From Promethearchaeum syntrophicum (lineage in GTDB: Archaea; Asgardarchaeota; Lokiarchaeia; Sigyniarchaeales; Promethearchaeaceae), in the NCBI RefSeq assembly GCF_008000775.2, contig NZ_CP042905.2, positions 2,400,001-2,432,000 of the forward strand: a DNA stretch of 32,000 nt, given 5' to 3'. How positions within the stretch are numbered: the first letter of the stretch is position 1; every line of letters starts with the position of its first letter. The position numbers and the translations under genes were made by a program. The notes below the pieces were generated by a model. It searched no databases. It was not told where the DNA came from and worked only from the letters and a program-made list of their open reading frames with translations. Positions 250 to 27,495 of the stretch are shown one piece after another.

Positions 250-2040
250 TTAAGAAGATTGATCTCTTTTTCTTCTTTGCGAAACATAAAAGCGCGCTGC
301 TTTATTTATATCATCATCATTTAAGCTTTTCTTGTTTAATCTGATTCTTAGTTGCTCAACAAATTTTCGACATAAAGTAATCGAAAGAGATTCGCCTAAA
401 TTCCTGATTTCTTCCCCGAGTTTTTCCGCTTCAATTGAAATTGGAGTAATTTCCACTTTAGGTTGCAAAATGAAATCTCCTAACGGATTTTTCTCCACTT
501 TACTTGAAACTGGCTTAATTTTTCTGATTTCCGCTTTGGTTTGAGCGCGTACACCTTTACTAATTAAGGGAGACCGTTCTAGCGTAAGTTTTTTCTCTCT
601 TGTTTGACCAGATTTGTAATTTGATAAAGAACTTTCTAAAAATTTCTCTTTCATTTCAATCCGAGAAGAATCAGAGGTTCCATTCAATCTATCTATGTTA
701 ATTGGTGCGATTTTATGTGTTTTTATTTCAAAATCTTTAATTGGCGCCCCAGGAGGCATTTCTTTAATTGAATTATCTTTCTTGGTTATCAAATCACTAA
801 AAAATGGATTTTTTTGATCCAATTTAGAAAATGTGGGGTCATTTTTTCTTTTAATCGAATCAAGGTTAGAAACGGGCAATTTTTTAATCTTTGGGACCCC
901 AATTTTATCTCCAGGTAATTGATTTACCCCTCTAAAATCTTTAAATTGGACTTTTTCAGGAGCTTTAAACATATCCTTTTCCAATTTTTTCTTATCTAAT
1001 TGTAATTGCAATTTTTCTTCTAATTCTTTAATTTTATTTTGAAATACTTCTAAATATGCAAATTCTTGATAAATTTCACAAATTCCTATCAATTCTCTTA
1101 GAAGTTCTATCCCTTCTGTATATTTTTCTTCTGCTACAAAATTATTCGCTTCTATAAGTTTTTTTCTAAATTCTTGGGGAAGGGATTCCTTTAAACCAAG
1201 TATTTTGGTAAAAATCATTGATAAATTTCCTAAAACATTTTGATCAATAAGATTTATATCAAAAATTTCTACATCCTTTAAATAAACATGCCTTTCCTTT
1301 AAAGCAGAAGAAGATACGAAATTTTGATTATCAGCATGGGTTAGTATAATCGCCCAATTACTATATTTTCCTTCTCTTCGCTTTAAATTGATGAAAAATT
1401 TGATTTTTTCATCATTAAAATTTGAACCATCAATAATAAAAAATATTACATCAGATCCTCTCGTAAAATTATTCCAAAGAGGGGAAAAATCATCTCTTGC
1501 TATGAAATCCCAGAGATCAAAGAAAATATTGCCCATCTTAATCTTGTAATAAAAAGCAAAATCCATAATTTTATGACCATGAGATTTATCTTCTTGATTC
1601 AATATATTTACAATCGTAGATTTACCAGATCCTACTGGTCCAATCATGGTTATTTTAGGATGTAGGTAATAATGAGTTTCTTTTATGAAAATCGTGAATT
1701 CCTCTTTTTCTGGGGAAATTTCTTTAATTTTCTTTGGGTCTGGGAAATTTTTAAGAAATAATTTTGAAGCTCTCTCCACTTCTTTGGCAATTAATTTAGG
1801 TCTATCAGCCATATCTGTTACAAATAAAAAGAAAACGCCATTAGCGTAAACGAAATGCGTTTGGAAATCAAGTAAAGATTTGTTAAGAATTTTTCCTTCA
1901 ACTGGATTCGTAATATAGGATAGAAGTCTCTTTTTTAGTACTATTTCCAAAGCTTCCTTATCAAAAGCTTTAGCGAAGAAATATTGGAATACAATTTCAT
2001 TATCATAATATATAAAGACTTGTCTTAACATTTTTATCAT
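250..2040 (-). CDS. Longin-like N-terminal domain fused to an Arf-family-like small GTPase domain with degenerate G3/G4 motifs, then coiled-coil and a Lys/Pro-rich tail
   Basis: P-loop GPVGSGKST is present. 'FDLWDFIARDDFSPLWNNFTRGSDVIFFIIDGSN' lines up with the Arf interswitch/switch II signature (f.vWDvGGQ..iRplW....glIfVvDs.D). 'LTHAD' sits at the NKxD position. The first ~125 aa (VFIYYDNEIVFQYFF...GVFFLFVTDMADR...ASKLFLKNF) show a beta-beta-alpha-beta-beta-beta-alpha-alpha hydrophobic pattern as in longin/SRX/sigma-adaptin folds (inference). The ATG at 2040 overlaps the upstream gene's TGA by 1 nt; the track start at 2043 is a TTG. Confidence 0.75.
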   Translation of the reverse strand: MIKMLRQVFIYYDNEIVFQYFFAKAFDKEALEIVLKKRLLSYITNPVEGKILNKSLLDFQTHFVYANGVFFLFVTDMADRPKLIAKEVERASKLFLKNFPDPKKIKEISPEKEEFTIFIKETHYYLHPKITMIGPVGSGKSTIVNILNQEDKSHGHKIMDFAFYYKIKMGNIFFDLWDFIARDDFSPLWNNFTRGSDVIFFIIDGSNFNDEKIKFFINLKRREGKYSNWAIILTHADNQNFVSSSALKERHVYLKDVEIFDINLIDQNVLGNLSMIFTKILGLKESLPQEFRKKLIEANNFVAEEKYTEGIELLRELIGICEIYQEFAYLEVFQNKIKELEEKLQLQLDKKKLEKDMFKAPEKVQFKDFRGVNQLPGDKIGVPKIKKLPVSNLDSIKRKNDPTFSKLDQKNPFFSDLITKKDNSIKEMPPGAPIKDFEIKTHKIAPINIDRLNGTSDSSRIEMKEKFLESSLSNYKSGQTREKKLTLERSPLISKGVRAQTKAEIRKIKPVSSKVEKNPLGDFILQPKVEITPISIEAEKLGEEIRNLGESLSITLCRKFVEQLRIRLNKKSLNDDDINKAARFYVSQRRKRDQSS

Positions 2041-3458
2041 CAAATATGCGTTTTTTTTAACCTCGAAAGTGTTTGGCGTACGGCATCGATCCTTATGTCT
2101 TCAGCAGATATACTTTTAAGTAAATTTTCTGTTAAAGAGTATGCATCTTCAATTAAATGCATTTCTTCGAGTAGTTCGATAAGTTGTAATGAATGATCTG
2201 TGTTTAGTTGTTCAATTTCATTTTGTACTAACGCTTTTTCTAATATTTCCATTTCTTCATCAGTAACGACTATATCTTCATCAGTAAATTCTTCTTCTTC
2301 ATCAGGAATTTCTTCTTCTTCATCAGGAATTTCTCCTTCTTCATCAGAAACTTCTCTTTCTTCATCAGAAACTTCTCTTTCTTCATCAGAAACTTCTCTT
2401 TCTTCATCAGAAACTTCTCCCTCTTCTTCAGAACCTTCTTTTTTTAATACATGAATTATTTCTTTTTTAGGTTGCTCATAACCAAAAATATATTTCTGTA
2501 TTTCATCTCTAATTAAAAATTTTAAAGCTTCAGGTATATTTAATTCGTTTTTTGAAAAGGAACGAACTAATCCTTTAAATCCTTGTAAAATTGCATAGGG
2601 TTCTGTGTATTCAGAAATTCCTTGTAAAATTTCCTTTAAAAATATAACAGAATCATCATCATTTGCTCGAATAGATGAGTTAAATAATGTAATTAGACCT
2701 TGTTCTCGCAGAAATTTACTTTTGATGCTTGATACAATACTTTCTTGAGCAAATTTTATCAATTCGTTAAAATTTTGATTTGGAATTTTTTCAATTATAT
2801 CCGAAATAAATAATATTACTGTATTTTTTAATCTGTCATCATTTCTTGCTACTCCCGATGTATAATTGATTATTATATAGCGTATCCGTTCTATTCCTTC
2901 ATCGATTTTTGGAGGATCTTCAGTTAAAAGATAGAAAGTGCTTTCTAAAATCGATAATATTTTATCTTGGCTATCAATTTGGAATGGAATGTATTTAATC
3001 AATTCTGGTTGAGGTCCACCAGTAGGCTTTTTCATTTTTTTACTTCTTTTACTTTTTCCTGATTTTTTTGAAGGTTCTTTTGAGGTACTGCTTTTAGTTT
3101 TAACCAATGTTAATTCCTGAATTTGAAATTCTTGAATTGGTTGAAAAATAATTCTGGAATCTTGTTCCCAGCAAGCAAAGATTTGATTTTCAGTTAATTT
3201 TTCTCGGATTTTTTTTGGAACTGTTATACTACCACTTTTAGTAAGCTTAATTATCTCTACTGGTTGAGTTGGAAGATTTACTTTAGCAACTGGAATTTCA
3301 TTTTCTTCTTTTTTGACTTCCGATTCTGGTTTTTCTGCTGATGCTGGTTTATCCACTGTTTCTATTTTGTTTTTATTTGGTTTTTCACTTTGTATGGTCG
3401 ATGCATTTTCTTGATTTTTTTCTTTTTCTACAAAGTTATCAGCAATTTTTTCTCCCAT
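2040..3458 (-). CDS. SpoVT/AbrB-domain protein with a helical central domain and an acidic heptad-repeat region
   Basis: 472-aa ORF. 'IKLTKSGSITVPKKIREKLTENQIFACWEQDSRIIFQPI' matches the swapped-hairpin AbrB/MazE pattern (k.G.itiPk.iR..l....gd......i.l.P). It has K/E-rich disordered N-terminal and linker segments, a ~200-aa helical region, then (x-[S/P/T]-D-E-E-x-E) repeats. It is translationally coupled to the downstream GTPase gene. Confidence 0.7.
   Translation of the reverse strand: MGEKIADNFVEKEKNQENASTIQSEKPNKNKIETVDKPASAEKPESEVKKEENEIPVAKVNLPTQPVEIIKLTKSGSITVPKKIREKLTENQIFACWEQDSRIIFQPIQEFQIQELTLVKTKSSTSKEPSKKSGKSKRSKKMKKPTGGPQPELIKYIPFQIDSQDKILSILESTFYLLTEDPPKIDEGIERIRYIIINYTSGVARNDDRLKNTVILFISDIIEKIPNQNFNELIKFAQESIVSSIKSKFLREQGLITLFNSSIRANDDDSVIFLKEILQGISEYTEPYAILQGFKGLVRSFSKNELNIPEALKFLIRDEIQKYIFGYEQPKKEIIHVLKKEGSEEEGEVSDEEREVSDEEREVSDEEREVSDEEGEIPDEEEEIPDEEEEFTDEDIVVTDEEMEILEKALVQNEIEQLNTDHSLQLIELLEEMHLIEDAYSLTENLLKSISAEDIRIDAVRQTLSRLKKTHI
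2256..2436 (-). repeat. Intragenic tandem repeat, 21-bp unit, about 8.5 copies, encoding acidic heptapeptides (EEREVSD / EEEIPDE)
   Basis: 'ttcatcag' recurs at 2256, 2277, 2298, 2319, 2340, 2361, 2382 and 2403, an exact 21-nt period. The units at 2340, 2361 and 2382 are identical (ttcatcagaaacttctctttc). Confidence 0.9.
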
Positions 3459-3522
3459 ATTTCAAATATTTAAACTATTTCCCAAAAAGTTTTTTGTATT
3501 TAAACTATAACTATAATTAAAC
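3459..3522. promoter_or_regulatory. 64-bp divergent promoter region with two copies of a 12-nt TATA-like element
   Basis: 'tatttaaactat' occurs at 3467-3478 and 3497-3508, 30 bp apart. Each copy lies about 10-25 nt from one of the two divergent ATGs (3458 on the minus strand, 3523 on the plus strand), consistent with archaeal TATA boxes and short or absent leaders. Confidence 0.4.
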
Positions 3523-4512
3523 ATGGGCTTTAGTGAAGAGGATTTAGTAAATTATTTTTCTAAAGGAAAAAATTATGTCCCCAAAGAAGCCATGAAAAAG
3601 CTAAATCAATTGTTATTTAAAGAGTTAGGTGAATATTGTCAAGTCTGCGAAGAGGATCGAATGATTTGTGTATTATCTCCAATGTGTCCTAGGCGAATAT
3701 TACTTAAAGTTCGAATTCAATCAGGAGCTAATAAGGATGATCTTCCCAAATTTTGTTATTCCCAAGCAGTAAATAATTTGAAGAGATATATGAAAAAATT
3801 AACAACTCTCTATAAACCAGTTGATGAACTTGTTTATAATAAAGATTTCATAGATATTATGTTTCCCAAATTATATGATAAATTTGTATCATATTTTAAC
3901 ACCGATATTGATAGAATTCATCAATTAATTGAAAGCAGTAAAGTTCCTGCAGAAAAATTCGATATCAATAGTTTAGATAATCAAATATTTCGAAAGATTA
4001 TAAACCAAAATAAACTAATCCGAGAAGGAACGTTTATTTATCATATAACCGAGAATTTATTACTAATATGGTATGAAGAAGCGATATTTATAAGTGATTT
4101 TTCCGATGACTCACATCTCACCATATGTAATGCAAAATATGATGTCATTGTGAATTTGAAGATTATTCAAATTGTTTTTCAAATTTATTGTGCACAATAT
4201 GGAATCATTGGTCATTCAATTTTAAACAGCCCTAATCAAATTTCACTTGAAATGAAAGTCCCAAACTCAGAAATATCTCAAGATCTATTAGACAATAACT
4301 CTGTATTTTTTTCAGAAATAATTATATTCCTTCAAGAATTCTTTTCTGAGATTGAAATATCCCAAGATTCGGATAATTTCATGAGATTTTCTATAATATA
4401 CCAAAATGTTGAACATTTTTTAAAAAGGAATATGCTTAAACCTTTAACATATAAATCAATTGAATCCATGATAGAAAAGATTAATGGATTAAAAATCGAT
4501 AAAATAAAGTAA
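3523..4512 (+). CDS. Hypothetical protein with an N-terminal CxxC-x7-C-x5-C motif
   Basis: 329-aa ORF with no recognisable family. Contains 'CQVCEEDRMICVLSPMC'. It is divergent from the AbrB/GTPase operon and lies 37 nt upstream of the HEAT-repeat gene. Confidence 0.6.
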   Translation: MGFSEEDLVNYFSKGKNYVPKEAMKKLNQLLFKELGEYCQVCEEDRMICVLSPMCPRRILLKVRIQSGANKDDLPKFCYSQAVNNLKRYMKKLTTLYKPVDELVYNKDFIDIMFPKLYDKFVSYFNTDIDRIHQLIESSKVPAEKFDINSLDNQIFRKIINQNKLIREGTFIYHITENLLLIWYEEAIFISDFSDDSHLTICNAKYDVIVNLKIIQIVFQIYCAQYGIIGHSILNSPNQISLEMKVPNSEISQDLLDNNSVFFSEIIIFLQEFFSEIEISQDSDNFMRFSIIYQNVEHFLKRNMLKPLTYKSIESMIEKINGLKIDKIK

Positions 4513-4549
4513 TAATATATAAAAATAATACTGTAGGAGATAAATAATA

Positions 4550-5686
4550 ATGGGTCAAATAATGGAACAAATATTTGAATTTCTTGATAATCAAAAATAT
4601 AATGAGGCAATCCAATTAATTAAAGAGAACTTGGCTAAAAGAGATCCAGCATTCATCGAAGATCTGGTTCCGAGTTTGAATATTATAACAAGTAGTTCAA
4701 TCGAAGTTGCAGAATCTATTATGGCTCCCCTTTTAGGAATTTTAAACATTGATGATGATGTAATACGTTATTCAATTATACTTTCTATTAGAGATTTTGT
4801 AATAGAACATAAAGAGCTAATTTTCCCTTATGTTGAAGACTATTTAAAATATGGAACTCCAAAGAAAAGGGAAGGAATGTTATTACTTATCAAATACATT
4901 GCAGATACCGATCCAAAGGCATTAAAATCATTCTATAAATTACTCGCATACGAATTAAGTGATTCAATTGACTATATTCGTAAGAAAACCGTTGAAATTC
5001 TTCAAGCAATTGGTAAAGCGGATAGACACGAAATAGAAGCTTGCATTTTTGATTATTTAAAAGCGGAACAAGAAGAATCTGAAAAAAATATTGCTGATGA
5101 AGAATTATTGCTCGAAGCGGATAAAATTATGGCAAGTATTAAAGAATCCACCCAATTAAAACCTCAAGATAAGCTCGTAATTGATGTTGCAGATAAAATT
5201 CTTAAGAAAGGTGCAGATGGGGCTTCAAAACGTGCGGATAATGAGAAAATTACTCATGCTGCTGATACAGTCTTAAAAGATATCGTAGGTTTAAAAGCTT
5301 TGAATAAGGAAGAACTTGAAAAACGGCATTTAGAAGCTCAATCGAAAGCCATAAAAGAGAAATTATTGGAAGATAAGAAGAAGTTGGAGATTGAAAGGCT
5401 AGAATTAGAAGCTGAAAAGGAAAAAATCGATGAGGAACGTTTAAAACAAGAAAAATCTCATCTTGAAAAAGAGAAAACTTTGCTAGAGAAAAAAATGGAA
5501 TTATCTCAAGTCAAACAAGAACTTGAATTAAAAAAGATCGAAGAAGAAAAAATGAAAATAATTGAGGAAGAAGAAAGAAGAATTCAAGAAAAACTTAAAA
5601 AAAGTGAAGAATCAGAGGAATCAGAGGTATCAGAAGAAAATCATGAAGATACTGCGTCTAATAATAATCAAAACCATTTTGAATAA
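4550..5686 (+). CDS. HEAT/ARM-like alpha-solenoid N-terminal domain plus a long K/E-rich coiled coil and an acidic Ser/Glu tail
   Basis: 378-aa ORF. The first ~170 aa have repeated helix-turn-helix periodicity with HEAT-like segments (DDDVIRYSIILSIRDFV, KREGMLLLIKYIADTDP, YIRKKTVEILQAIGKAD). Residues ~250-350 are heptad-rich (LEIERLELEAEKEKIDEERLKQEK...). The tail reads SEESEESEVSEE. Confidence 0.6.
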   Translation: MGQIMEQIFEFLDNQKYNEAIQLIKENLAKRDPAFIEDLVPSLNIITSSSIEVAESIMAPLLGILNIDDDVIRYSIILSIRDFVIEHKELIFPYVEDYLKYGTPKKREGMLLLIKYIADTDPKALKSFYKLLAYELSDSIDYIRKKTVEILQAIGKADRHEIEACIFDYLKAEQEESEKNIADEELLLEADKIMASIKESTQLKPQDKLVIDVADKILKKGADGASKRADNEKITHAADTVLKDIVGLKALNKEELEKRHLEAQSKAIKEKLLEDKKKLEIERLELEAEKEKIDEERLKQEKSHLEKEKTLLEKKMELSQVKQELELKKIEEEKMKIIEEEERRIQEKLKKSEESEESEVSEENHEDTASNNNQNHFE

Positions 5687-5700
5687 AGGGGAAGAATAAA

Positions 5701-6999
5701 TTGAAAATTTCAAAAGGATGTATTTTAGCAGCAGGTAAAGGAACTAGATTATTACCCTTAACTGAAACGAAACCAAAACCACTCATTCCAATTGCAGGAA
5801 AACCATTACTTCAACATTCAATAGAAATGTTTCGGGAAAACAATATTACAAAAATCCTTTTAATAGTTGGTCATTACAAGGAAAAAATTGAAGAATTTTT
5901 TGGAAATGGCGCTGATTTTGGAGTCGAAATCTCGTATATAGAACAAAAGGAATTTTTGGGAACTGCTCATGCTACCAATCTTGCAAAAAATTTTGCTGAT
6001 CAAGATCCCTTCCTTCTTTTCTACGGAGATCAGTATATGGATTCACGCATTTTTGAAAAAATACTTGATGAGTTTTCTACAAATACATATGATGGGTTAA
6101 TTTCTGCTAAATATATGGAAGATCCGGAAAAATGGGGTATCTTAAAATCAAATAAAGAAGGATTTTTAGAAAACCTTATTGAAAAACCACCTGATAATCG
6201 ATATGGAAATCTAGCAAATGCAGGGGTATACATATTTAACCAAGATATCTTTGAGGGAATTGCTAACACAGAAAAATCTCTAAGAGGAGAATATGAATTA
6301 ACAGACTCGATTCAGTATTTAGTAGACAGAAATAAAAAAATAAAGATCGTAGATATTTCCAATTATTATTGGAATGGTGTTGGATATCCTTGGCAAATTC
6401 TTGAAACGAATCATCATATTATTTCAGAAATGAATACAGATTTAATTCATAGCAGTGTGGTAGAAGAAGGATCAGTGACTATCAAAGGAATTGTCGAGAT
6501 AGGAGAAAACACATTATTAAAAGCGGGAACTTATATCGAAGGTCCCTTGATTATCGGAAAAAACTGTGTTATAGGTCCAAATGCATATCTTCGTCCTTAT
6601 TCAACCATTGGTGATAATTGCAAAATCGGCAATTCTTCAGAGATTAAGGCATCTATAATAATGAATCATACAGCAGTGCCCCATCTTTCCTATGTTGGGG
6701 ATTCTATTATTGGAGAACATGTCAATTTAGGATGCGGTACAGTTACTGCAAATGTTCGCCTTGATAAGAAAAATATCTCCATGGAACTTAAAGGTAACTT
6801 AATTGAAACCCATAAAAGGAAATTAGGCGCATTTATTGGAGATTACGCAAGTATCGGAATAAATGTTAATATAATGCCAGGAAAATGCATAGGGTCTTAT
6901 TGTGAAATAGGCAGTAATACAATAATATCGAAAAACGTTCCCGCAAATTCATTGCTATTTACAAAACCAAAACAACAACAAATCCTAAGAAAAAAATAA
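5701..6999 (+). CDS. Bifunctional sugar-1-phosphate nucleotidyltransferase / hexapeptide-repeat acetyltransferase (archaeal GlmU-like)
   Basis: The N-terminus 'ILAAGKGTRLLPLTETKPKPLIPIAGKPLL' is the nucleotidyltransferase signature. The C-terminal ~170 aa are left-handed beta-helix hexapeptide repeats (IGKNCVIGPNAYL..IGDNCKIGNSSEI...IGEHVNLGCGT). TTG start preceded by GGGGA. Confidence 0.85.
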   Translation: MKISKGCILAAGKGTRLLPLTETKPKPLIPIAGKPLLQHSIEMFRENNITKILLIVGHYKEKIEEFFGNGADFGVEISYIEQKEFLGTAHATNLAKNFADQDPFLLFYGDQYMDSRIFEKILDEFSTNTYDGLISAKYMEDPEKWGILKSNKEGFLENLIEKPPDNRYGNLANAGVYIFNQDIFEGIANTEKSLRGEYELTDSIQYLVDRNKKIKIVDISNYYWNGVGYPWQILETNHHIISEMNTDLIHSSVVEEGSVTIKGIVEIGENTLLKAGTYIEGPLIIGKNCVIGPNAYLRPYSTIGDNCKIGNSSEIKASIIMNHTAVPHLSYVGDSIIGEHVNLGCGTVTANVRLDKKNISMELKGNLIETHKRKLGAFIGDYASIGINVNIMPGKCIGSYCEIGSNTIISKNVPANSLLFTKPKQQQILRKK

Positions 7000-10536: not shown

Positions 10537-12342
10537 CTATAATTGACAATCTTCATCATCAGGGTCTAGTAATTGGTTCAAAATATTTGGGCCATCTCTG
10601 AGACCCCAAGGATCGGTAGAATATAGTAGGGGTAAAACTGGTGTGCCATCACTCCACAAACCCATACCGATCATATTTTCTCCACCACCTTGAAAGTAGG
10701 TTTTAGCATCATTCGCAACCACGGTTCCACTATTAGCATCCGCTACTAGAAAACTAGCCATGGCATCGATTCGTCGGTGATATCCGAATACCGAAAGCGT
10801 ATCAATTAAAGGATCATTTGGAAGGTAATGGGTTGCGACTAATCGGGGAAATCCGTATCGATCAGATCGAATCAAGAGGAAGGCGACCTGATCGGGATTC
10901 AGTTCGATTGAATTATCACGAGTAAAGAATCTTTCATGTTGGGCCATCCCATCGCAAGGGCTTAAAACTGTATCATCCTCATAACCTATAACATTCACCA
11001 TCGTATAATTAGGCAATATCGAGAGGTTTACATTGACAGAAGGCCATGTGGCACTAGTAGTTGGAGCTTCTAAATCAAAAATAAGCTGTTGTGAAGCCCA
11101 TCCTTCTGAAATAACTTGAGATCCGATAAAAAGAGTCATTCCTCCACCAACACTATGTCCTATAATTAAAATACGGCTAGTGTCTATCGTATAATCCGTT
11201 CCTAGCGTTTCATTAAGCTCGGACGAGGAGATAAGACTATTATTTCCTATGAGAGTATTTACTGCAGAAAACATCCCCGTCCAAGTCATATTATACTTAA
11301 TATAACTCGAAAAAGAATATGCTTCTGTATCATTTTCAACTTCAACTTTTTCTAGAATTTTAGTATAATTAAAACTCCGTGAGTATTGTACAAAAATAAC
11401 TGCCATTCCACGGGAAGCAAGAGCACGTAAGGAATAATCATATTCAACTACATCCTGTCCGCTATTTCCATGGCAATATAGTGCAATTGGGATATTTTGG
11501 GTAGAAGAAAGGGTTGCTACACTTAAGCGGGGAAGATAATAGTATATATACCATGAATTATTTTCATTGCGAGGGGTCACGAATGCAGTGATATTTTCAG
11601 GTAGATCATTTTCTACTTGAAATGTGTCTACCTCAAATGGACGATCTTGGCTACCATAACCAGAAGAAGGTTGAAGTTCAGAAGTTGGCGATAGCCCCAT
11701 TAAGGGAATCAAACTAGGAAAGATGATGATAAACCCGAGTATTACCCATACGAGATTTTTAGCCATTTTGATATAGTTTAGAGTAGGTTTATAGATGGTT
11801 AATTTAAGGGTTTCAGTTTTTTTTAATATTCTTTTAAAAAGAGGATACAGAATTATTTGAACTGTATGAAAATCGCTAAACGAAATCAAGCTTGTGCCAA
11901 TTATTATCCCGATGGAAAGAATAAAAGGTATTGAAACAAAAGCACCGTGAAAATACAGTTGGTTAATTATCAGGTAAATTATTAGTTCATAAATTAAATA
12001 TCCTATTCCAACTCCCCCCAATATTCGCAAGATATCCCAGGTGTACAATTTTTTTGCTTGTTTCTCCAGAAGATCTTTTTTGAAAATTCGATATTGATAA
12101 AAAATCAATCCAAAAATGACAATGAGGAGTAATAAAAATGTCAACCAGAATACTAACGGTGTATTAACTTGAATAACTCTTGCAAATTCCAGTGAAGAAC
12201 GCGCTTTATTAAATTCTACTCCAGTTCCCGATAGAAAACCAATCAAAAAGGGGACAAGACCTATCAGTAAGCCTAGAAGCTCGGCACTTACTAATAAAAT
12301 TTTAAGGATTTTTGAACGCTTGTATTCGATCATGTAAATCAA
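10537..12342 (-). CDS. Membrane-anchored alpha/beta-fold serine hydrolase (multi-TM N-terminal domain plus a predicted extracytoplasmic catalytic domain)
   Basis: 601 aa. About 6 hydrophobic helices lie in the first ~215 aa. The nucleophile elbow is 'IIGHSVGGG' (GxSxG), with candidate Asp in 'GYEDDTV' and His in 'VATHYLPND'. There are nine N-x-S/T sequons in the C-terminal domain (NIT, NNS, NYT, NDT, NMT, NNS, NET, NLS, NYT). Confidence 0.75.
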   Translation of the reverse strand: MIYMIEYKRSKILKILLVSAELLGLLIGLVPFLIGFLSGTGVEFNKARSSLEFARVIQVNTPLVFWLTFLLLLIVIFGLIFYQYRIFKKDLLEKQAKKLYTWDILRILGGVGIGYLIYELIIYLIINQLYFHGAFVSIPFILSIGIIIGTSLISFSDFHTVQIILYPLFKRILKKTETLKLTIYKPTLNYIKMAKNLVWVILGFIIIFPSLIPLMGLSPTSELQPSSGYGSQDRPFEVDTFQVENDLPENITAFVTPRNENNSWYIYYYLPRLSVATLSSTQNIPIALYCHGNSGQDVVEYDYSLRALASRGMAVIFVQYSRSFNYTKILEKVEVENDTEAYSFSSYIKYNMTWTGMFSAVNTLIGNNSLISSSELNETLGTDYTIDTSRILIIGHSVGGGMTLFIGSQVISEGWASQQLIFDLEAPTTSATWPSVNVNLSILPNYTMVNVIGYEDDTVLSPCDGMAQHERFFTRDNSIELNPDQVAFLLIRSDRYGFPRLVATHYLPNDPLIDTLSVFGYHRRIDAMASFLVADANSGTVVANDAKTYFQGGGENMIGMGLWSDGTPVLPLLYSTDPWGLRDGPNILNQLLDPDDEDCQL

Positions 12343-14885: not shown

Positions 14886-15254
14886 TAATTTAAAGAGAAA
14901 TAATAAAATATTAAATAAAATTTCCTAAAACATTTAATGTACTTCATTTTTTCACCAAAATTTATAAATTTTTAATTCTTTATATATTATGTAGGTAAAA
15001 ATATCTCTATTATATATTTTCGAAAAAAAATCATCCATATTGGAACTTAGCATTAATAATGATATGTTTCATTCACGGTAACGTGTATTTTATTTATACT
15101 TTTCTAACAATTTTAAATTTAGCAGAATAATGGAGGAAGAAATTGGAGATCTCTCATTTTTACTTTAAATAATATTTCTACAAATATAGCCAAAGATTCA
15201 AATTTAGAAAAATAAGGTCGTTTTTATTAAATTTAAAAAATTTAAGGTGAAATC

Positions 15255-15692
15255 ATGCAAAAAAGTTATTATCGAAATCTAAACCAAGGAAAAAAAGTTA
15301 TTAATGCGGAACATAAATTTACAATTTTACAGTACCAACAAAAAAGAGCAGAGTTGAATGGAATGATTTCAGAAATTTCAGATTTAAATATTGATCAACT
15401 TAAATCAGAAGTAAGAAAAACTATTTTTAGAGTTAATATAGAAAATATTAAAAAATCTATTAATTATCATTTTACTTCAAAAGCTCAAAGAACTTTACCA
15501 ATTTTAATGAAGAATTTTAAGAAAGCATTAAAGTTCGTTCATCATGAAATTAAATTTAAGCCATACTTCCAAACAAACACTGAGATTCAAAAAAAATTCA
15601 TTAATTATATCTCTATTATTCTACAAGAAAGTTTAAATCAAGATCTTTATCTACAAGATATTGAAATAGAACATCATAAATTAAATATTTAA
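15255..15692 (+). CDS. Hypothetical Lys-rich protein (145 aa)
   Basis: ORF with a GGTGA Shine-Dalgarno 7 nt upstream of the ATG. No family recognised. It is preceded by a 369-bp ORF-free AT-rich spacer. Confidence 0.5.
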   Translation: MQKSYYRNLNQGKKVINAEHKFTILQYQQKRAELNGMISEISDLNIDQLKSEVRKTIFRVNIENIKKSINYHFTSKAQRTLPILMKNFKKALKFVHHEIKFKPYFQTNTEIQKKFINYISIILQESLNQDLYLQDIEIEHHKLNI

Positions 15693-15781
15693 TATTTAAG
15701 TAGGGATATTTAGATTTTATTTGATTTCTTTGTTTGCTTATTTTACATAAACATTTATATTAGATAATTAGATATGTCTAA

Positions 15782-16351
15782 ATGATAATAATGAAATTTC
15801 TCCCAACAATTGATCCTTCTTTAGGAGGTATTTGGATATTTATCCTTCTATATGTAGTTATTTTAGGTTTGATTATGCTATCTGTTCCAAAGAATACCCG
15901 AATTCGATTGTATGATACATCTTCATTTAGTGGAAAACAATTGAAAATTAGCAAAGCACTGAAGATTTTTTTTTTATTTGATTTAATTTTATTAGCCCTC
16001 GTTCCAATACAGTTTGAGAGCTTTGAATTTATTGTTGGACTAGTTTTTATCATTATAGGCTTTACATTTTTCGGTGTTGCAATATACAATTTTGCTCAAA
16101 CTCCTCCCAATACTCCTGTCACTAAGGGAATATATCGCTATTCAAGAAATCCTCAAGTTTTGGGTCTAAGTTTACTCTTCATTGGAATAAATATCATAAG
16201 CAAGTCGATATTATTAATATTAATCTGTTTTTTGGGTATAATTGGTTCACATTTCCGAATATTACTTGAAGAAAAGCAATGTATTCTCCAATATGGGGAA
16301 TCGTATCAACAATATATGAAAAAAATTCCACGATATTTCTTATTCATTTAA
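15782..16351 (+). CDS. Membrane methyltransferase of the ICMT/PEMT (isoprenylcysteine carboxyl / phospholipid methyltransferase) family
   Basis: 4-5 TM helices. 'GIYRYSRNPQVLG' and 'EEKQCILQYGESYQQYMKKIPRY' match the family's C-terminal SAM-binding signature (G.Y...RhP.Y.g...EE..L...fG..Y..Y...v.r). Confidence 0.75.
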   Translation: MIIMKFLPTIDPSLGGIWIFILLYVVILGLIMLSVPKNTRIRLYDTSSFSGKQLKISKALKIFFLFDLILLALVPIQFESFEFIVGLVFIIIGFTFFGVAIYNFAQTPPNTPVTKGIYRYSRNPQVLGLSLLFIGINIISKSILLILICFLGIIGSHFRILLEEKQCILQYGESYQQYMKKIPRYFLFI

Positions 16352-25989: not shown

Positions 25990-26054
25990 TAATTTAACAA
26001 AAGAAAAAAAGTGATTTATAGTTTTTGTTTTGTTCCAATCTTTTTGTCGGATGG

Positions 26055-26076
26055 AGATTAACTTGAAAAATCATGA
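26055..26076. repeat. IS terminal inverted repeat (right)
   Basis: Perfect 22-nt match to the reverse complement of 24306-24327. Confidence 0.9.
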
Positions 26077-26296
26077 AAAAATAGAATTTAGTTCTTTTCT
26101 ATTGTAGAATATTTATAAACTGGCTCTTGGAGCTTATTAAATTTTGTCTGGAGTTGGGAATCAAAGGAAAATACAAGAAAATTCATACATTTACCACTTA
26201 CAAAAATATCTAGGTTAGCCTTAAATTCTTTTTTTTTGTAAATTATTAAAAACATTTTTGCTTTTTACATTCTTTGAAAAATTAAAAAAAAAAGAC

Positions 26297-26866
26297 TTAA
26301 TTCACACTTTTAAAAAAGAAAAGATATTTTGTAGCTTTTTCTCTTTTAAATATTCTTAAATTTTCAATCTTATTAACGTAGTGTTCAGCATCGTGATGTT
26401 CAACTAATAAAATTAGTTTACCAGACGGTTTTAAAACTCTCTTAAATTCATTCAGATGTTGTTGTAAATTTTCTAAGTGATGTATTACATCGAATATAAA
26501 AACATAGTCAATTGATTTATCATTAATATATAATTCACAATCTGTTGTAATTGTTGTTATATTTGATATTCCATTTGATTCAGTTTTTTTTTGAACATAT
26601 TTTTCAGCTAAAGGATGTATATCAGCAGAAAAAACATGTCCATTAGGTAAAACCATTCTCGCAGCTTCAATTGCATAATCTCCAGGACCAGCACCATAAT
26701 CTAAAATAATATCGCCAGTCTTTAATGGAATTTCATTTAGGATTTTGATAATCTTTTCTTTTTTTCGAATAAATCTGAAAAGAAATACCATGCTCCTAAA
26801 CCCAAAATTACTAAATTTTCTTTTTTTTTTCATTTTTTTCATTTTTTTCATTTCATTCATCCACAA
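26297..26866 (-). CDS. Class I SAM-dependent methyltransferase
   Basis: Motif I 'ILDYGAGPGDYAIEAA', 'VFSADIHP', 'IDYVFIFDVIHHL' and 'LKPSGKLILL'. The start is uncertain: the N-terminus MWMNEMKKMKKMKKKRKF comes from (ATGAAAAAA)x3 plus an A10 run, and an alternative ATG lies at 26791 (MVFLFRF...). Confidence 0.8.
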   Translation of the reverse strand: MWMNEMKKMKKMKKKRKFSNFGFRSMVFLFRFIRKKEKIIKILNEIPLKTGDIILDYGAGPGDYAIEAARMVLPNGHVFSADIHPLAEKYVQKKTESNGISNITTITTDCELYINDKSIDYVFIFDVIHHLENLQQHLNEFKRVLKPSGKLILLVEHHDAEHYVNKIENLRIFKREKATKYLFFFKSVN

Positions 26867-26988
26867 AATATTTTTAAATTTTAATAAAATTAATAAAAAT
26901 AAGATTTTGTATTATTAAAATCCAAAAGTCGTATATTTAGGAGTAAGTATTAAAAAAAATACCTATATATCAACCGGAAGAGGATATA

Positions 26989-27495
26989 ATGAGTTTTATT
27001 CACGATATAGAAAATTGGAAAGACGTTTTAGAATTGATTCCAAAACTACAAAATGCAGTTTTTAAAAATTTACAGAAACATCTAAATAAACAGTTTGATA
27101 CAGCGGAAATATCCCGCTCAGAATTACTTGAAAGACACAAAGAAAAAGATCCAGAAAAAAATCCAGTAAAGGAGGAGATGAAGGTCTTCTCATCGACCGC
27201 CAAAATATTCCAAGGTAAATATACTATGGAAATAATTTTCGTTTTGAGTGGGTTTAAATTTGCATTTTTTAATGAACTAAAACAAGCACTAGGAAATATA
27301 ACTTCCAGTTCTCTATCAAATAGATTACATTTATTAGAAAACTCAGGGATAGTAAAAAGAACTGTTCACGAAGGAACCCCAATTCGAGTTTCATATCATT
27401 TAACAAAGACTGGTTGGGGAGTTTATGGATTACTCTTACCACTTCTAATTTATACTGCAACAATAATAGAAACAGATAATAAAATGAAGAAATAA
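26989..27495 (+). CDS. HxlR-type winged-helix transcriptional regulator with a ~70-aa N-terminal extension
   Basis: 'GKYTMEIIFVLS...FNELKQALGNITSSSLSNRLHLLENSGIVKRTVHEGTPIRVSYHLTKTG' matches the HxlR pattern (GkW...Il..L....rF.eL.....gis...Ls..Lk.Le..Glv.R........v.Y.LT..G). It is divergent from the methyltransferase at 26297-26866. Confidence 0.8.
   Translation: MSFIHDIENWKDVLELIPKLQNAVFKNLQKHLNKQFDTAEISRSELLERHKEKDPEKNPVKEEMKVFSSTAKIFQGKYTMEIIFVLSGFKFAFFNELKQALGNITSSSLSNRLHLLENSGIVKRTVHEGTPIRVSYHLTKTGWGVYGLLLPLLIYTATIIETDNKMKK

Follow-up and report, generated by a model that had tools for sequence, protein, structure and literature searches.

The four-gene locus

The stretch of DNA analysed here, called the window throughout, comprises 32,000 nucleotides of the archaeon Promethearchaeum syntrophicum (assembly GCF_008000775.2, contig NZ_CP042905.2, positions 2,400,001 to 2,432,000 of the forward strand) and has a G+C content of ~30%. 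Close to its left end lie four genes, whose products are a fusion of a longin domain with an atypical Arf-like GTPase, an AbrB-fold protein, a protein with five conserved cysteines (Cys5) and a HEAT-repeat protein with a long charged helix. The GTPase is 100% identical to WP_162306730.1/QEE16885 of P. syntrophicum MK-D1, and its locus tag, judging from the neighbouring tags, is probably DSAG12_02715. A preliminary description of this DNA had listed four open reading frames (ORFs) in two divergent units separated by a 64-bp spacer; all four frames and the spacer are present, at the positions collected in Table 1. The spacer holds two direct copies of TATTTAAACTAT, at 3467-3478 and 3498-3509, and each copy includes a palindromic TATA-like TTTAAA core. 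The leftward pair had been described as translationally coupled through a TGATG overlap. The TGA stop of the AbrB gene (2042-2040) does overlap an ATG, but this is not the conserved start of the GTPase. The mechanically called ORF (250-2043, minus strand, 597 aa) extends up to a TTG at 2043, while nearly all GTPase orthologues begin with MLRQ, which places the start at the ATG at 2031, 8 nt past the AbrB stop; the current NCBI model of the protein has 593 aa. The 597-aa product has no exact catalogue match, because the catalogued protein begins at MLRQ. Under either start the two genes are tightly coupled, at most 8 nt apart.

Table 1. Genes and features of the four-gene locus (window coordinates)
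Feature	Position	Strand	Details
LGX GTPase gene	250..2031	-	593 aa, counted from the conserved MLRQ start
C-terminal three-helix domain	253..444	-	residues 530-593; kept in all orthologues
K/P-rich linker	445..969	-	residues ~355-529; pLDDT<50
Post-G helical region	970..1176	-	residues 286-354; family-wide conservation, long helix at end
Arf-like (ArfL-class) G domain	1198..1659	-	residues ~125-278
Longin domain	1666..2031	-	residues 1-122; AF2 topology, profile matches, published 'L'
AbrB-fold/helical protein gene	2040..3458	-	DSAG12_02716, QEE16886, 472 aa
Acidic-heptad tandem repeat (EVSDEER...)	2252..2443	-	21-bp x 9.1, 88% matches
SpoVT/AbrB-type domain	3114..3263	-	residues ~66-115
Divergent spacer	3459..3522		64 bp; putative promoter region
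Cys5 orphan gene	3523..4512	+	DSAG12_02717, 329 aa
Five conserved cysteines	3637..3756	+	C39, C42, C49, C55, C78; probable Zn site, putative metal binding
HEAT + long E/K-helix protein gene	4550..5686	+	DSAG12_02718, QEE16888, 378 aa
HEAT/adaptin-N-like repeat region	4550..5074	+	residues ~1-175; best-conserved part of the protein
E/K-rich long helix	5285..5599	+	residues ~246-350; coiled coil or single alpha-helix

The four genes are linked across divergent Lokiarchaeia

The preliminary description had conceded that its grouping of the four genes would fall if they were never found together elsewhere. A scan with a Cys-family profile, taking one genome per GTDB species, gave 77 loci, and hidden Markov models (HMMs) of the four families were then run on all ORFs of 79 non-duplicate loci, the window and earlier-found loci included. 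The full four-gene set is present in 59 of these 79 loci, despite rearrangements. Two arrangements account for the complete sets: in 55 loci the order is GTPase(-), Cys(+), HEAT(+), AbrB(-), and in four, among them the window, it is GTPase(-), AbrB(-), Cys(+), HEAT(+). A third order occurs in a distant metagenome-assembled genome (MAG), where GTPase, Cys and HEAT genes run colinearly and AbrB is missing. The Cys gene is followed directly by the HEAT gene wherever downstream sequence exists, except at two distant Thor-labelled loci, with a gap of -13 to +63 nt (median 21 nt), and in 25 of the 55 loci with the commonest order the HEAT and AbrB genes overlap tail to tail in convergent orientation. 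The Cys proteins fall into six clusters at 50% identity, with <30% identity between clusters, and the unrelated flanking genes vary between clades. With synteny kept across five to six of the sequence clusters, the refuting condition clearly fails, and the adjacency of the four genes is not due to chance.

Contig ends truncate about half of the incomplete loci. Two others (L002 and L037) have no AbrB gene despite enough flanking sequence, and further cases concern the GTPase and are weighed below. Because some genomes with full flanks keep only part of the set, the Cys-HEAT pair may be separable from the other two genes. The linkage is specific to the orthologue group of the window GTPase, since two LG-type relatives from other MAGs (P0032 and P0033), which carry canonical DFAGQ and NKQD motifs, have unrelated neighbours, with no HEAT, Cys or AbrB gene beside them.

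How widely is the module distributed? Some of the loci come from JBHL* MAGs whose record titles name Thor-, Hod-, Hermod- and Odinarchaeota (L023, L026, L027, L032, L043, L044, L049, L056, L059, L072, L075 and L079; locus G+C 26-32%). A pan-Asgard distribution was considered and rejected: the Cys proteins of this series are 55-90% identical to one another across labels and to Loki_b32. Judged by these sequences, the taxonomic labels of the JBHL* MAGs look unreliable, and because the Thor, Hod, Hermod and Odin labels are not credible, we claim the module for Lokiarchaeia only.

An atypical GTPase fused to a longin domain

The GTPase was modelled with AlphaFold2 (AF2) from 31 input sequences. 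The mean predicted local distance difference test (pLDDT) score is 74.5, and the model is confident over residues 1-355 and 530-592. At the N-terminus, strands 2-9 and 12-18, helix 25-35, strands 49-53, 56-63 and 66-72 and helices 78-95 and 107-122 follow each other in the order bb-a-bbb-a-a, which is that of a longin domain, with block-mean pLDDT values of 84-94. This topology and the published annotation of the protein bear out the longin fold suspected in the preliminary description. In profile searches of the PDB, AP-2 sigma comes first (E=0.013, residues 19-100 aligned with 19-100), VAMP7 matches at E=0.12-0.33 and longin proteins make up eight of the ten top matches. Pfam Longin is matched at 1.2e-5 by one of 20 N-terminal sequences and Clat_adaptor_s at 0.013 by two of 20, and a direct hhalign comparison of the domain with AP2S1 is weak (probability 21%). 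Of 64 non-redundant orthologues, no fewer than 97% keep the opening residues M1-L2-R3-Q4, and D73 and D76 do not vary. The protein has no N-terminal amphipathic helix of the Arf type, as both the AF2 model and the alignment have it open with longin strand beta-1 (MLRQVF).

An Arf-signature G domain had also been claimed. In profile and fold the domain is Arf-like: Pfam Arf (PF00025) matches residues 128-250 with E=1e-8 (35.3 bits against a cut-off of 22.3), and Foldseek searches of the PDB with the model return mainly Arl3, Arl1, Arl8 (ARL10B/C), Arf6 and Arf1 at the top. Some orthologues also give weak Pfam matches to SRPRB. To speak of an Arf signature is nonetheless an overstatement, since the protein is classed as ArfL and lacks the switch-I threonine, the DxxGQ motif and, in the window clade, NKxD. 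The P-loop (GPVGSGKST) is intact in the window, and GxxxxGK[ST] is present in nearly all of the 64 orthologues. Switch I reads IMDFA in the window and IM[DN]FA across orthologues, with no threonine; G3 reads WDFIAR in the window and WDFQ[LI]K in orthologues, with neither the glycine nor the glutamine. In G4, most orthologues keep NKxD (N231 and K232 at 92%), whereas the window protein has THAD and its clade THAD, THKN or SHSK. In the MK-D1 clade, then, the G4 motif has decayed, and the G domain there may be more a nucleotide-bound structural module than a fast switch.

The remainder of the chain had been described as a coiled-coil and Lys-Pro-rich tail. The K/P-rich linker and long helices within residues 286-354 are indeed there, and the AF2 model adds a C-terminal three-helix domain, in which I542, G546, L549, C554, D574 and A578 are conserved. 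About 160 aa of linker, predicted with low confidence, join the helices to this domain. Alignments show that its short motifs (NPFF, GAPI..FEIKTHKI.PINI and KSGQTR.KKLT.ERSP) are clade-specific.

The ArfL group of Asgard small GTPases reportedly goes back to Klinger 2016. WP_162306730.1 is labelled ArfL, by BLAST, in Table S3 of the preprint of Vargova et al. 2024 (published 2025), in which ArfL is reported not to be directly related to eukaryotic Arf, ArfR being the sister group. The same accession is given as architecture 'LGX', in a Rag-like/Arf-annotated class, in the supplement of Tran et al. 2024 (PMC10933270), where 26 of 74 small GTPases of MK-D1 are combined with roadblock or longin domains. 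Asgard Arfs with longin N-termini have also been noted by Zhu et al. 2025. The longin-GTPase fusion, which the preliminary description took to be uncharacterised, had therefore been published as this very protein; the LGX fusion, the ArfL assignment and the domain families are not new, and we adopt the name LGX for the GTPase.

The three partner proteins

The preliminary description gave the third gene of the locus a CxxC-x7-C-x5-C signature. The motif is present, but its middle spacing is x6 and a fifth cysteine exists, so that it reads C39-x2-C42-x6-C49-x5-C55 plus C78. Because all five cysteines are kept in at least 77 of the 80 aligned orthologues, a metal site is likely, and the cluster probably binds Zn. 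The AF2 model of Cys5 (pLDDT 83, predicted template modelling score 0.83) consists of an N-terminal helical region and a C-terminal alpha/beta region. Foldseek finds no significant match for it (best E=0.037 in the PDB and 2.2e-3 in BFVD, both at a TM score of ~0.2) and no DENN, mu-homology or longin match; the sequence profile has no significant match in the PDB either (best E=0.38). SUKH_6 (2/27) and DUF7026 appear as weak matches below the cut-off. At two loci in Thor-labelled MAGs of other series, with 39-40% G+C (L081:3593-4393 and L082:6336-7136), a 266-aa protein shares only the N-terminal cysteine region with the family (E ~1e-18). Neither locus showed a neighbouring GTPase, HEAT or AbrB gene, and the protein may represent the cysteine module in another context.

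The HEAT protein of the window, searched alone, has no Pfam match. Among 21 orthologues, 12 match HEAT, 11 HEAT_EZ, 11 HEAT_2 and nine Adaptin_N (best 1.1e-7). Searched against the PDB, the family profile finds the hypothetical protein 2db0 of P. horikoshii (8.7e-7), AP-3 delta (7.6e-4) and AP-4 epsilon (4.8e-3), and it also matches designed repeat proteins (alphaRep). The HEAT assignment of the preliminary description thus holds at the level of orthologues, but the HEAT part spans only ~175 aa. Likewise, the K/E coiled coil of ~100 aa described there corresponds to a real E/K-rich helix (30% Glu, 21% Lys), but one with weak heptad periodicity. Two AADxxLK motifs lie between the HEAT region and this helix.

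The AbrB domain that had been assigned to the 472-aa protein is supported at the level of the family. PF04014 (SpoVT/AbrB/MazE) matches 8 of 18 aligned sequences, with a best E of 1.9e-7, but the window protein itself stays under the cut-off, with TIGR01439 at E=0.0044. The conserved residues K74, G76, P81, K82 and R85 lie in the motif TKxGxITIPKxIRE, and a basic linker with a net charge of +11 per 30 aa follows. The N-terminal motif and the family-level matches to PF04014 and TIGR01439 are those of the swapped-hairpin AbrB/SpoVT/MazE proteins; here, however, the domain is fused to a helical core, the basic linker and an acidic tandem repeat. The core, of ~170 aa, has no relatives in the PDB by profile search, and the idea that it arose as a paralogue of LGX or the HEAT protein fails in hhalign comparisons (probability 0.5-0.7%). 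The acidic heptads reported earlier are present, as a 21-bp tandem repeat in the DNA. This repeat is a recent, lineage-specific expansion in a conserved gene, because it is absent from the 366-aa orthologue of L. ossiferum.

In 51 loci of a large Loki_b32-like clade, an ORF of ~198 aa immediately precedes the AbrB gene and has the same orientation (for example L015:10216-10824(-), L017:11132-11728 and L026:11320-11916). It carries CxxC...HxGH, has no Pfam match above threshold and, in a tblastn search, no homologue in the 32-kb window. This ORF is a possible fifth member of the module.

A model for the LGX module

We propose that the four products are subunits of one soluble assembly, specific to Lokiarchaeia, that is built around an atypical small GTPase and is predicted to be gated by nucleotide. 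The proposal is tentative, and we place it a little short of an even chance. None of the four proteins contains a transmembrane-like segment (best hydrophobic 19-mer at most 1.34 on the Kyte-Doolittle scale). For SR-beta, Rag, MglA, Rab and Arf, longin and roadblock domains serve as regulatory or dimerisation platforms, and HEAT solenoids are the usual type of effector for Arf, Arl and Ran GTPases.

How would such an assembly work? The four gene products would assemble together, with the Cys and HEAT proteins as a constitutive pair, since the gene gaps of -13 to +63 nt fit co-translation. LGX would bind nucleotide through its intact P-loop, and its own longin domain would act as a regulatory or dimerisation platform for the G domain, either in cis or in a dimer. 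Possibly R3/Q4, conserved residues of the longin domain, stand in for the absent catalytic glutamine, although a catalytic role of these residues is speculation. The nucleotide state would then gate docking of the HEAT solenoid. The AbrB-fold subunit would dimerise through its swapped-hairpin barrel and link the assembly to DNA, by way of the basic linker, or to another protein.

Several observations weigh against this model. The switch-I threonine, the glycine and glutamine of G3 and, in the window, NKxD are lost, which puts GTP binding and switching in doubt. The likeness of the HEAT and longin parts to specific eukaryotic families is weak (PDB E values of ~1e-2 to 1e-3). Three loci with full flanks (L009, L010 and L011) keep the Cys-HEAT pair only, and at three others (L055, L056 and L072) no GTPase gene is near despite enough flanking sequence.

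Alternative explanations

The preliminary description had offered two readings, a proto-trafficking or membrane-remodelling module and a GTPase-controlled regulatory switch, and both are still hypotheses. The AbrB-fold protein could also be the centre of the system. In that case the locus would encode a GTPase-controlled transcription switch, a putative DNA-binding AbrB regulator whose activity is set by LGX together with the Cys-HEAT pair. An AbrB/SpoVT/MazE domain with a basic linker behind it would suit such a role, as would the tight coupling of the AbrB gene to the GTPase gene in the window clade and a 12-bp direct repeat in the 64-bp spacer that could act as an operator. The coupling is not general, however: the AbrB gene stands outside the GTPase operon in 55 of the 59 complete loci, where it is convergent to the HEAT gene, and in 51 large-clade loci the ~198-aa ORF lies just upstream of it on the same strand. 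The repeat in the spacer can be read simply as TATA boxes, and the swapped-hairpin barrel occurs as a pure dimerisation or protein-binding module as well. We consider a transcription switch unlikely.

The loss of the switch residues invites a different explanation, in which LGX is a pseudo-GTPase that serves as a static structural scaffold with no nucleotide switching. The whole family is without the switch-I threonine and the DxxG glycine and glutamine, and the window clade has replaced NKxD by THAD, THKN or SHSK. Retention of the P-loop in nearly all orthologues and of NKxD in most of them (N231 and K232 at 92%) argues otherwise; for the family as a whole it speaks for selection on nucleotide binding. 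A static scaffold is in our judgement decidedly unlikely.

A third possibility is that the cluster encodes a proto-adaptor or coat hemicomplex, in which a sigma-like longin domain, an adaptin-like HEAT protein and an Arf-like G domain act on membranes, for example at the cell protrusions of Lokiarchaeia, as the archaeal counterpart of the large-subunit/small-subunit/Arf unit found in AP and COPI coats. Once alphaRep and 2db0 are set aside, the HEAT profile has its best named matches in AP-3 delta and AP-4 epsilon, which are sigma-binding large subunits. The best solved-structure match of the longin profile is AP-2 sigma, in register over residues 19-100, nine of the 21 HEAT orthologues match Adaptin_N, and among known structures the G domain comes nearest to Arl and Arf. 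The matches cohere but are weak (E=0.013 for the longin profile, ~1e-3 for the HEAT profile and 21% by hhalign), and the HEAT matches are generic. Moreover, the HEAT region is only ~175 aa long, no mu-homology or appendage domain is seen, the proteins offer neither an amphipathic N-terminal helix nor a transmembrane segment, and the GTPase, classed as ArfL by Vargova et al., is not placed in the Arf/ArfR clade. Neither MK-D1 nor L. ossiferum has been seen to contain internal membrane compartments (PMC10933270). Such a hemicomplex is highly unlikely on this evidence, in which nothing ties the module to membranes, and a trafficking role of the module is unproven. We give only a slender chance to the bolder version, in which a proto-adaptor has survived in archaea that is related or ancestral to this unit of the AP and COPI coats. 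Its Arf-like G domain, joined covalently to a sigma/zeta-type longin domain, would dock according to nucleotide state on an adaptin-type HEAT protein with a long spacer helix, and with Cys5 and AbrB-fold subunits specific to Asgard archaea it would act on membranes or protrusions in Lokiarchaeia. Analogies with Arl2/tubulin cofactor D and with SRX/SR-beta were kept as leads only, as nothing specific supports them.

Chance adjacency of unrelated genes, to which the few genomes that split the GTPase and AbrB genes from the Cys-HEAT pair might point, is effectively refuted and hardly credible, given linkage in 59 loci, between clusters of <30% identity and across rearrangements.

Relation to known systems

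The closest published counterparts of LGX are the Asgard longin- and roadblock-GTPase fusions (LG, LGX, LGR and GR; PMC10933270), which include this same protein with its longin-then-GTPase order; the study says nothing of conserved partners of the HEAT, Cys and AbrB types (Tran et al. 2024). According to that study, GTPase genes of MK-D1 are generally not in operons with likely regulators (PMC10933270). The ArfL assignment in Table S3 (Vargova et al. 2024) agrees with Pfam Arf being the best model here, but the LGX orthologue group differs from the ArfL group in lacking DxxGQ and the switch-I threonine. A precedent for a small GTPase encoded with longin-superfamily regulators is the conserved Asgard operon of a LAMTOR1-like protein, a Rab-like GTPase and a DENN protein (Liu et al. 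2020, 10.1101/2020.10.19.343400); there the GTPase is Rab-like, whereas here it is ArfL, and the partners differ. Categories for adaptin-N HEAT, Arf-like GTPase and longin proteins appear in the lists of eukaryotic signature proteins in PMC9834061.

Among eukaryotic machines, the AP and COPI complexes combine the same three fold types in a large subunit, a small subunit and Arf1 (PDB 3TJZ, Arf1-gamma/zeta-COP; 9C59, AP-3 with Arf1), and the weak best matches of the longin, HEAT and G domains go to the sigma, adaptin and Arf families. In the LGX module, by contrast, the longin and G domains share one chain, the HEAT part is limited to ~175 aa and Cys5 and AbrB-fold subunits are added; the cluster encodes no further subunits, and neither a mu or beta subunit nor an appendage or membrane anchor is seen in it. 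In SRX(longin)-SR-beta(Arf-like), MglB-MglA and Ragulator/Rag a longin or roadblock domain serves as a platform for a small GTPase. LGX shares this pairing, but in those systems the two are separate chains or, in Rag, the roadblock domain is C-terminal, whereas in LGX the longin domain is fused N-terminally. The cluster encodes no transmembrane anchor, SRP54-type NG domain or Ragulator-like partners.

Our literature searches turned up no account of the four-gene module or its three partner proteins. The accessions and locus tags of the GTPase and all three partners gave no hits in main texts, and the GTPase accession appears only in the supplements of two papers. In Asgard genomes, eukaryote-like small GTPases, longin domains and HEAT proteins number in the hundreds, and partners are known for almost none. 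The LGX module names three candidate partners for one longin-GTPase. Its conservation spans divergent Lokiarchaeia, and both cultured species, MK-D1 and L. ossiferum, possess it. The module turns the statement that building blocks are present into a complex that is concretely testable in cultured Asgard archaea. In addition, a GTPase that has kept its P-loop and lost canonical switch residues, beside a longin domain with invariant residues, bears on the evolution of longin-GTPase regulation.

Neighbouring genes and other observations

The distant MAG with the colinear GTPase-Cys-HEAT block, JAFGBS01, also has a gene of the actin family (PF00022; L002:14347-15450(+)), which follows the block on the same strand at a distance of ~2.5 kb. 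A 345-aa gene that follows HEAT in L002 was considered as an AbrB member and rejected, as its product has 15% identity and no HMM match.

In the window, a sugar-nucleotidyltransferase with a hexapeptide-repeat C-terminus is encoded at 5701-6999(+), 15 nt past the HEAT gene, with a sub-threshold match to an eIF2B-epsilon LbH-like domain. L. ossiferum has the same layout as the window, this downstream NTP-transferase gene included; in the large clade the position after HEAT is taken by AbrB instead. Elsewhere in the window, a 601-aa ORF (10537-12342(-)) and a 145-aa ORF (15255-15692(+)) have no Pfam match at E<=0.001. The G+C content dips to 0.23-0.24 at 15001-16000 and 26001-27000, compared with ~0.30-0.33 elsewhere.

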